DNA from: an uncultured bacterium | Lineage (GTDB): Bacteria > Abyssobacteria > SURF-5 | Length of the DNA: 64,000 nt | Assembly (NCBI GenBank): GCA_964607485.1 | Contig: CAZSKP010000016.1 | Coordinates: forward strand, 1 to 64,000 | Reading direction: 5' to 3' | Shown: piece by piece, positions 51,742 to 53,915 of the stretch | Layout of the letters: each line of letters starts with the position of its first letter | Numbering within the stretch: position 1 is the stretch's first letter | Made by a program: the position numbers and the translations under genes | Notes under the pieces: generated by a model | The model's database searches: none | What the model saw: the letters and a program-made list of their open reading frames with translations, nothing else | What the model was told of the DNA's origin: nothing

Positions 51742-51966
51742 CTCTCAGTCCCATGCATGCTTCAGGAAAGCTCGGCCCTCGGGCCTCTACATCATGCGGT
51801 GTGATGTGTAAGGGCCACAATCTATGCCACTGCACACATGTATAAGATACCATCCTCCGTTCGATTAAGTCAAACGGTGTGCCCCTGACTTGCCAAAGAA
51901 CCTGCCACTGTCCATATTTTAAGCAAATGTAACTGTCATTTCCGGATTGAGCGCAGGAGGCATTCC

Positions 51967-52293
51967 ATGAAAGAACCCATACGCGTCAGCCCCGACGAGA
52001 CTCACCGGAAGCTGGAATCCGGCGCCGCGATCCTCGTGCGCGCATACGAGGATGAGGAAAAATTCAGAATGATGCAGCTAGAAGGAGCGATTTCGCTCAG
52101 CGAATTCGAGTCCAGACTGCCCACGCTGTCGAAGGACCAGGAGATCATCTTCTACTGTGGTTGACCGCAGGAAAAGACGTCCGCCGGTCGGGCGGCGCAG
52201 TATATAGAGAAGGGATACGCGAATGCGAAGGCTCTCGGCGGAGGAGTGGAAGGCTGGAAGAAGGCCGGGTACCGTCTCGTCGTCGCGAAGTGA
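51967..52293 (+). CDS. Rhodanese-like selenoprotein (Sec at TGA 52162-52164, CGU motif), 108 aa
   Basis: Rhodanese fold continues in frame after UGA (SAGRA...GY.NAKALGGGVEGWKKAGY); SECIS-like hairpin 52181-52195; AGGAGG RBS. Confidence 0.85.
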
Positions 52294-52404
52294 GGCTTCA
52301 TCGGCTTCTTTCGTGAGAATACCAAGAGGAAAGACCTCAGGCGATTGACAAGGGGAGATGATGTAACGCTCCGCCCGCGGAAAGGGCGGCAAGAAGAATC
52401 ATTG

Positions 52405-52434
52405 TTGACATTGCGGAACCCGAGGTAATATAAT
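52405..52434 (+). promoter_or_regulatory. Sigma70 promoter upstream of the glyQS leader
   Basis: TTGACA-N18-TATAAT. Confidence 0.75.
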
Positions 52435-52500
52435 GCCATCGAAGCGATGGTGTGTCTGGCCGCGGCTAGATTCGCCCGGGGTGAAACCGCATACAGGTTC

Positions 52501-52546
52501 GCCCTTTTCGTCGAGACCGTGAGCGGTTTGGCGAGAAGGGCTTTTT
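52501..52546 (+). terminator. Intrinsic terminator inside the glyQS 5' leader
   Basis: About 18-bp stem GCCCTTTTCGTCGA.ACCG/CGGTTTGGCGAGAAGGGC followed by TTTTT. Confidence 0.75.
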
Positions 52547-52589
52547 GCTATCACATGATTTTGAGAGAGGGGAGGTGGGTGTTTACCTC

Positions 52590-53915
52590 ATGGCCAAGAA
52601 AGTTCCCAGTGAGGCCGATAAGAAGATGGAAGAGCTCGTCTCGCTCTGCAAGAGGCGCGGGTTTATCTTTCAGAGCAGCCTGATATACGGCGGCATAAAT
52701 AGCTGCTGGGATTACGGCCCGCTGGGGGTCGAGCTGAAGAACAACATCAAGCGCCACTGGTGGAAGACGATGACCCAGGAGCGCAACGACATCGAGGGGC
52801 TCGATGCAAGCATCATAATGCACCCCCGCGTATGGGAGGCCTCGGGCCACGTCGAGGGGTTCACCGACCCGCTGGTCGACTGCAAGCAGTGCAAGCACCG
52901 CTTTCGCGCCGACGAGCTGAGCGGCCCAAAGTGTCCCGACTGCGGCGGCGAGCTGACCGAGGCGAGGCTGTTCAATCTGATGTTCAAGACGTTTGTCGGA
53001 CCCGTCGAGGAAGACGCGGCGGTCGTTTACCTCCGGCCCGAGACCGCGCAGGGCATCTACGTGAATTTCCTGAACGTGATGGGTCCCTCGCGCCAGAAGA
53101 TTCCATTCGGCATTGCGCAGATAGGCAAGGCGTTTCGCAATGAGATAACGCCCGGCAATTTCGTCTTCCGCATGCGCGAGTTCGAACAGATGGAGATGCA
53201 GTACTTCGTCCGGCCGGGAACGGACGAGGAATGGTTCGACTACTGGAAAGAAAAGCGGCTGCAGTGGTATCGGGACATCGGCATAAACGAGGAGAAGCTC
53301 CATCTGCACGAACACGAGCACAAGGAATTGGCCCACTATGCCCGCAAGGCGTTCGACATCGAGTACGAATTCCCCTTCGGCCGGAAAGAACTGGAAGGAA
53401 TCCACAACCGGACCGACTTCGACCTGTCGCGCCACCAGGAATACTCGGGCAAGGACCTCTCCTACTTCGATCAGGAGCTCAACCAGCGGTATGTCCCGTA
53501 CATAATCGAGACTTCCGCGGGCGTTGACCGGACGCTGCTGACATGCCTCGTCGATGCCTACGCGGTGGAGAACCCCGGCAAGAAAGAGGAGCGTAAGGTG
53601 CTGAGGCTGTCGCCCAAGCTGGCGCCCATCAAGGCGGCCATCCTCCCACTGGTCAACCGCGACGGTATGCCCGAACTGGCCAAGAAGATAGCCGACGAGC
53701 TCAGGCCGCATTTCAAGATATTCTACGACGACGGCGGCTCCATCGGGCGTCGCTACAGGAGACAGGACGAAGCCGGCACGCCGTTCGGAATAACGGTCGA
53801 TTCGCAAACGCTCGAAGACGAAACGGTCACCCTGCGCGAACGCGATTCCATGAAACAGGAGCGAGTGAAAATATCGGCGCTCAAAGACGAGCTTCTCCAA
53901 CGCACCGCAATCTGA
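52590..53915 (+). CDS. glyQS: Glycine--tRNA ligase (single-chain, homodimeric type)
   Basis: [48 protein letters not shown]. Confidence 0.97.

Follow-up and report, generated by a model that had tools for sequence, protein, structure and literature searches.

The 64,000-nucleotide stretch of SURF-5 (Abyssobacteria) DNA that is analysed here (contig CAZSKP010000016.1 of assembly GCA_964607485.1, positions 1 to 64,000 of the forward strand, referred to below as the window) very probably contains an intact selenoprotein gene that is missing from annotation. Its predicted product is a cytoplasmic, 108-residue, single-domain rhodanese whose active-site loop opens with a Cys-x-selenocysteine (CxU) motif, and the in-frame UGA at 52162-52164 is, on comparative sequence evidence, almost certainly recoded as selenocysteine (Sec) 66. 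We accept the recoding because the TGA is conserved at its column in relatives, because the codons behind it are under purifying selection and because a hairpin that follows it, a presumptive selenocysteine insertion sequence (SECIS), covaries.

Read with the standard bacterial code (table 11), the open reading frame (ORF) runs from the ATG at 51967 to ...FYCG-TGA (51967-52164) and specifies 65 amino acids, the codons before the TGA being TTC TAC TGT GGT (F-Y-C-G). Past the TGA exactly 42 sense codons follow in frame (52165-52290) before a second TGA is reached at 52291-52293. The active-site loop of the read-through product is Cys64-Gly-Sec66-Pro. The product matches the Pfam family Rhodanese (PF00581) with 36 bits against a cut-off of 22.2, residues 8-100 aligning with positions 1-102 of the 102-position profile; the rhodanese domain thus spans the TGA. 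An earlier note on this DNA, made from the letters of the sequence, had described an ORF stopping at FYCG-TGA, with 42 sense codons behind it completing a rhodanese fold, and both the coordinates and the Pfam match agree with that description. The features of the gene are:

51955-51960, plus strand: Shine-Dalgarno-like AGGAGG, read directly from the sequence, with the ATG 6 nt downstream
51967-52293 (terminal TGA included), plus strand: predicted Sec-rhodanese gene, single domain of 108 residues with Sec66 (translation with TGA read as U, Pfam, NCBIfam)
52156-52158, plus strand: TGT, Cys64, head of the active-site loop (catalytic-Cys column)
52162-52164, plus strand: in-frame TGA, predicted Sec66 of the C-G-U motif (conserved column, Cys counterparts)
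52165-52290, plus strand: 42 codons completing the rhodanese fold, ...TSAGRAA...GGVEGWKKAGY... (codon differences, homologues)
52178-52197, plus strand: predicted SECIS hairpin (folding, covariation, constraints of the bacterial SECIS model)
52291-52293, plus strand: terminal TGA, the true end of the gene (in homologues TAA, TAG or TGA closes the frame at most a few codons away)

Directly behind the terminal TGA no SECIS-like hairpin was noticed when the sequence was read by eye, without folding.

The hairpin behind the TGA

The hairpin starts 13 nt after the UGA and its loop lies 21 nt after it. The core stem pairs 52181-52185 with 52191-52195 around an apical loop, GGUCG, at 52186-52190; in the minimum-energy fold U52180 bulges out, with two more pairs beneath it (52178-52179 with 52196-52197), and the energy is -12.2 to -12.4 kcal/mol. 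The bacterial SECIS model that underlies bSECISearch, as set out in the Fig. 2 legend of PMC13188914, specifies a loop of 3-9 nt on a stem of 4-16 bp, a G as the first or second loop base, in most cases with G/U next, a UGA-to-loop spacing of 16-37 nt and an energy of -7.5 kcal/mol or lower. The window hairpin lies within all four constraints: its loop has 5 nt and begins with two G, its stem has 5+2 bp, the spacing is 21 nt and the energy -12.2 kcal/mol. A CCGCC-GGTCG-GGCGG hairpin fitting the bacterial SECIS layout, with its loop about 21 nt after the UGA, had been pointed out in the earlier note; it is present, with the arms just given, and to its agreement with the published model can be added its covariation.

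Covariation was assessed by aligning 85 distinct homologous stretches without gaps and comparing the alignment with 500 shuffles. Of the stem cells 90.9% are paired, compared with 83.7 +/- 0.9% in shuffles, and changes on both sides of a pair are found in 6 of the 7 stem pairs (46 cells). None of the 500 shuffles reaches any of four covariation measures and a single one reaches the fifth; shifting the stem partner by 1-3 columns lowers pairing to 26-49%. At pair 36:48, which joins two synonymous third positions, U-A occurs 65 times, C-G 11 times, U-G 6 times and G-U twice, with 1 mismatch; a swap between Ser/Ala and Ala/Leu codons within the stem turns a C-G pair into G-C. The Gly codon in the loop is GGT in 71 of 73 cases (97%), in contrast with 130 of 713 (18%) at the other Gly positions of the same metagenome genes. 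Protein coding explains neither the covariation of third positions nor the preference for GGT. A scan of 51800-52600 against Rfam, with E-values up to 1, gave no family match.

There is another way of looking at the hairpin, namely as something other than a SECIS: a by-product of coding for Ser-Ala-Gly-Arg-Ala-Ala, or a terminator for the opposite strand. A simple scan does flag it as terminator-like on the minus strand, and RNAalifold, given 12 sequences, favoured a different, long-range stem joining the UGA region with the loop. However, that long-range stem is without covariation on the 85 sequences (387 of 500 shuffles are as good) and was rejected; upstream there is no end of a credible gene on the minus strand, and relatives do not conserve the T-run; and a by-product of coding would not have its synonymous third positions covary or its Gly codon fixed as described. 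We regard this alternative as very improbable. Judged by its covariation, the hairpin at 52178-52197 is the SECIS of the gene. Sec insertion would proceed by the standard bacterial mechanism, SelB with its Sec-tRNA(Sec) binding the hairpin so that Sec would be inserted at UGA 52162-52164. The G and U of the loop resemble the bases with which SelB makes contact in the fdhF element of E. coli.

The TGA column and the selenocysteine machinery

The phylum is represented in the collection that we used by 11 species genomes. Seven of the other 10 carry close TGA-containing homologues, 10 genes in all, and every one of the 10 has Cys-x-TGA at the identical column in surroundings whose synonymous codons vary. 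Past the TGA the domain of these homologues goes on, and its stop codon (TAA, TAG or TGA) coincides in position with that of the window gene. (The phylum relatives read FYCAU, the window FYCGU.) The homologue comparison that the earlier note had asked for thus finds the TGA kept at its column and an intact domain behind it. When the window gene is compared codon by codon with 8 relatives, the 38 codons behind the TGA differ by 104 synonymous and 85 non-synonymous changes, the 60 codons before it by 146 synonymous and 193 non-synonymous changes; the downstream part is therefore at least as constrained, as protein, as the part that precedes the TGA.

The same column can be followed outside the phylum. 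A metagenome scan with a pattern in which the Sec column had to be TGA and the Cys codon could be TGA, TGC or TGT yielded at least 120 stretches, of which 80 loci were analysed. Among the matches listed, 33 of the 80 are CxU and 47 are UxU forms, and the rest of the domain, through its GGxxxW region, is present in all 75 loci that are not ended earlier by their contig. A contig of about 93% identity from an independent study, found by comparing the contigs of three DNA runs, keeps the TGA and has Ala in place of the preceding Gly.

These observations bear on whether the gene is simply broken at 52162, by a nonsense mutation or an assembly error, with a 65-residue fragment or nothing being made. 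Gene callers do stop at that position, the resulting 65-residue product of the window itself is present in the public protein collection (P0008), and the energy of the hairpin, taken as a single sequence, is unremarkable. But the TGA is shared by all 10 phylum genes and by the independent contig, and purifying selection acts on the 42 codons that follow, which in the informative metagenome loci listed are open and conserved throughout; a recent lesion would not be common to several genera, nor would it keep a covarying hairpin. A pseudogene is accordingly a most improbable reading, and recoding of the UGA as Sec66 stands as the preferred one.

The public protein collection shows what standard gene calling does to the family. 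Of the 120 best matches there, 114 cover just 56-65% of the query, most of them 63-66 residues long, and the truncated proteins that were fetched end in ...FY or ...FYC[AG]. Six full-length matches have W at the Sec column (FYCGW, FYCAW), two of them with W at both columns (FYWGW, FYWAW). These proteins (P0002-P0007, P0010 and others) most likely come from short contigs called under a code with TGA as Trp, a systematic annotation artefact of the family.

The assembly that contains the window (4.7 Mb in 93 contigs, 97.5% complete) encodes the machinery for Sec. selA (577 bits) and selB (386 bits) are adjacent on contig C71; selD (392 bits; C18:62527-63453, L007) has an in-frame TGA of its own (...SGG-TGA-ACK...), which places Sec in GGUACK, taken by us to be the canonical N-terminal loop; and selC, the tRNA-Sec (contig C19), scores 67 bits and is typed by ARAGORN as SeC with anticodon TCA. 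All four are above their curated cut-offs, and the expectation of the earlier note, that a Sec-rhodanese implies selA, selB, selC and selD in the genome, is borne out. About 12 nt after its TGA selD has a different candidate hairpin. Release factor 2 (RF2) is also encoded, with the usual internal TGA. That the organism reads TGA as Trp or Gly (code 4 or 25), and that the residue is not Sec, could be argued from the W at the column in public gene calls of six relatives and from a paralogue with TGA at a conserved Trp column (L038, described below), but the probability of this is next to nil: RF2 is present and TGA is a usual stop (it ends 34 of the window's 51 open frames that reach 300 codons, four neighbour genes with Pfam matches among them, and the rhodanese gene itself), which together exclude a code in which TGA is generally sense, the tRNA with the TCA anticodon is typed as tRNA-Sec in the company of selA, selB and selD, and relatives with a sense codon at the column have Cys, Ser or Asp in that place, with no verified case of Trp.

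Family relations and the active-site loop

The kind of protein is already known. CxU rhodanese selenoproteins appear in published selenoprotein tables as 'form 3 / COG0607 form 2' (PMC13188914, PMC9312934), and NCBIfam holds a model for such proteins, NF041203 (rhodanese_LYCAU, rhodanese-related (seleno)protein), so that the caveat of the earlier note, that related Sec-rhodaneses might already have been predicted, was justified. In their Olavius-symbiont data set, Zhang and Gladyshev (2007) list 8 such rhodanese genes, without a Cys homologue in that data set, and Fig. 3A of the same paper presents a new UxU form of rhodanese-related sulfurtransferase selenoprotein (PMC1976440): the double-Sec variant is thus also known. 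The window protein has the family and the loop of the UxU form in common with it, but it keeps a Cys (TGT) at the first position and would contain one Sec, not two.

NF041203 is the best family for the window protein and for all 76 members of its clade, the best E-value among these being 1.5e-26. Like the proteins that the model describes, the window protein has a single rhodanese domain with C-x-U at the head of the loop, Sec two residues after the catalytic Cys and a SECIS directly downstream. In contrast, its motif is FYC[AG]U, not LYCAU, its match misses approximately the first 20 of the 126 model positions, and none of the 11 phylum genomes has a match above the cut-off of the model. On these scores the gene is best placed as belonging to a sister clade of NF041203 within the known CxU group, and not as a member of the equivalog.

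Similar comparisons can be drawn with proteins that have no Sec. The C-x-C-P relatives (represented by L042, from a deltaproteobacterial metagenome-assembled genome, with 50% identity) have the same length, the same fold and the same longer loop, with Cys in place of Sec; lacking the TGA, they have no need of a SECIS. GlpE and PspE share with the window protein a rhodanese fold of about 105-110 residues and a catalytic Cys after the central strand (PDB 1gmx, E 1e-6), but the window protein scores 25 bits against a cut-off of 102 for the GlpE model, its loop is two residues longer (by profile alignment with 6mxv) and it has a second chalcogen residue. The canonical rhodanese loop consists of six residues after the Cys. 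A sequence search of the PDB found no characterised member or solved structure with a CxC or CxU loop; its best matches, 6mxv and BH2092 (3o3w, 3nhv), have other loops. In the profile alignment the YC of the profile falls on YC at the loop head of both 6mxv domains, in keeping with the assignment of Cys64 to the rhodanese catalytic position in the earlier note. Elsewhere in the protein, residue 25 (codon 52039-52041) is Arg where at least 90% of the 76 clade members have a conserved Cys (LLVCAY becoming ILVRAY); the window protein is thus without a third cysteine that most relatives keep.

How Cys and Sec are distributed over the two loop columns was surveyed with a profile search of 1.84 billion representatives. 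The best 150 matches include 48 single-domain proteins that were counted for these columns:

CxC: 26
CxS: 10
CxW: 4 (read as TGA)
CxD: 3
WxW: 1
CxT, CxG, CxF and AxT: 1 each

The earlier note had held that a non-Cys sense codon in homologues would point to a nonsense pseudogene or a sequencing error; the commonest sense residue at the column is Cys, and Ser, Asp and a few others occur there too. A search of genome contigs with a Cys-codon pattern, which retrieves Cys forms only, gave 4 loci from 39 pattern matches, and in L042-L044 real TGY codons for Cys (FYCSC) stand at the Sec column, one of these proteins being 50% identical to the window protein. Every one of the 76 clade members in the alignment has C or U at column 64; the codon corresponding to Cys64 is itself TGA in 47 of the 80 metagenome relatives (among the matches listed) and in two genomes, G036 and G016. 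The Cys and Sec forms are intermingled in a tree built from 94 sequences, a CSC form standing beside a CSU form, for example, and a CAU form beside a UAU form with 95% support. (The tree is built on 108 columns and 49 of its 91 inner forks are unresolved; it is used here just for the interleaving of Cys and Sec.) As far as the aligned sequences tell, the pattern is the one that repeated Cys/Sec exchange commonly leaves.

Most genomes of the phylum contain a second CxU rhodanese paralogue (L021, L023, L025, L037, L038 and L173, in G003, G004, G005, G006, G007 and G009). At their N-terminus these second paralogues have a signal peptide, together with a lipobox-like Cys (as in ...FGCAT, ...VAGCAG and ...ISACAT); they would be exported lipoprotein selenoproteins. 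The genome of the window has the cytoplasmic copy only (one match). One lipoprotein-type gene (L038:1486-1809, plus strand, contig C30 of G005) has a second in-frame TGA, at the conserved Trp of GGVxxW (GGVNR-TGA-THEGY), which could be a truncation by change of TGG to TGA, a sequencing error or something odder. The UxU relatives (47 of the loci L046-L125, among the matches listed, and L026 and L028) have a single hairpin behind both TGAs, and two UGA codons that are 6 nt apart would depend on one SECIS, at loop spacings of 27 and 21 nt. In three metagenome loci (L093, L114, L118) the frame runs on past the rhodanese domain; the extensions of L114 and L118 have a GGGxHG-type motif, which suggests that they are fusion proteins.

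Possible chemistry, surroundings of the gene and meaning

A number of observations weigh against the preferred reading, the recoding of the UGA as well as the proposed redox or transfer chemistry, or limit how far it can be carried. The window protein reaches 60.8 bits against the NF041203 cut-off of 115, and 7 scored relatives lie between 42 and 72 bits. The literature, for its part, lists the CxU rhodanese family under predicted selenoproteins (PMC13188914, PMC9312934, PMC1976440). The hairpin is no more stable than dinucleotide shuffles of this G+C-rich stretch (z of -0.82, -1.22 and +0.29). Since the metagenome set was selected for TGA at the column, it provides no ratio of TGA to Cys. At the +2 column, 16 of the 48 counted proteins have Ser, Asp, Thr, Gly or Phe, and the residue is thus not indispensable to the fold. 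Because the loop is two residues longer than the canonical rhodanese loop, classical thiosulfate:cyanide chemistry should not be assumed. A conserved neighbourhood was not found: the neighbours differ in all 12 homologous loci (Pfam, 92 ORFs). No RNA run was found that contains the locus.

What chemistry might a Cys-x-Sec loop support? Cys64 could accept a sulfane sulfur atom, or selenium, and become a persulfide or perselenide. A nucleophilic attack by Sec66, for resolution or relay, would then produce a Cys64-Sec66 selenenyl-sulfide, and a thiol reductant, thioredoxin for instance, would reopen the bond. The loop columns are suggestive in this respect: column 0 is nearly always C or U, and the +2 column is C, U, S or D, which is the pattern expected of a catalytic residue and a helpful but dispensable resolving partner. 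The disulfides of short C-x-C peptides are strained and relatively oxidising, and this would suit a redox role. Selenenyl-sulfide redox or sulfur/selenium-relay chemistry at Cys64 and Sec66, an idea already put forward in the earlier note, is offered tentatively, as a possibility that falls somewhat short of being probable. No biochemical study of the family was found in the literature searched, the scope of which did not extend to subscription-only papers and supplements.

A broader proposal is less likely still, and should be regarded as doubtful. It would make the FYC[AG]U and FYUxU proteins, the lipoprotein paralogues included, a distinct clade outside NF041203 whose loop, longer by two residues, might hold a strained Cys-x-Sec or Sec-x-Sec redox switch or serve a sulfane-sulfur reductase, and not a sulfurtransferase, with the two closely spaced UGAs of its UxU members depending on a single SECIS.

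It is also conceivable, but unlikely, that the protein is a real Sec-rhodanese whose Sec66 is there for handling selenium, passing it in reduced form, as a Cys-S-Se or Se-Se species, towards SelD. Rhodanese perselenide reportedly figures in a selenium-delivery system proposed by Ogasawara et al. in 2001 (known to us as a title in the reference list of PMC5877670). The family is confined to Sec-using organisms, as it must be since it needs the Sec machinery, and two-Sec UxU forms are common (47 of 80 among the matches listed). However, the gene is unlinked to selD, selA and selB, which lie on other contigs, the 12 loci compared have no neighbourhood in common, and there are Cys-only CxC relatives. 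Redox or relay chemistry of the Cys64-Sec66 pair remains the preferred, if tentative, suggestion.

The surroundings of the gene are quickly described. It is monocistronic, has its own ribosome-binding site and lies between a divergent RlpA-like gene and the gene for glycyl-tRNA synthetase. The neighbours in the window (class-V aminotransferase, DUF456, RlpA-like, glycyl-tRNA synthetase, phosphoesterase) give no specific functional hint. Upstream of the rhodanese gene there is a weak promoter-like sequence, TTGCCA-17-CATATT (51890-51918), whose sole claim to be a promoter is agreement with the consensus at 9 of 12 positions. A perfect sigma-70 consensus (TTGACA-18-TATAAT, 12 of 12, 52405-52434) is found about 110 nt before the glycyl-tRNA synthetase gene. 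Just upstream of that promoter, at about 52369-52388, is a G+C-rich hairpin that may terminate the rhodanese transcript and that has no match to an Rfam leader. In other genomes, the UxU rhodanese of G036 (L026, contig C60) lies, together with a second, TGA-free rhodanese, between the genes for 2-oxoacid dehydrogenase E2 and E3, and the UxU rhodanese of G016 (L028, contig C62) adjoins a TauE/SafE sulfite-exporter gene.

The family to which the window gene belongs has been predicted since the 2000s and the gene adds no new principle to it. Its interest is more practical. Standard annotation truncates the gene, to 65 instead of 108 residues, and most of the best public matches likewise, the remaining ones being mistranslated with Trp; a proteome or metabolic reading of this small and poorly known phylum should include the corrected gene. 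The comparative set, with its 85 covarying SECIS hairpins and its exchange of Cys and Sec at two neighbouring positions of the loop, is a starting point for experiments.

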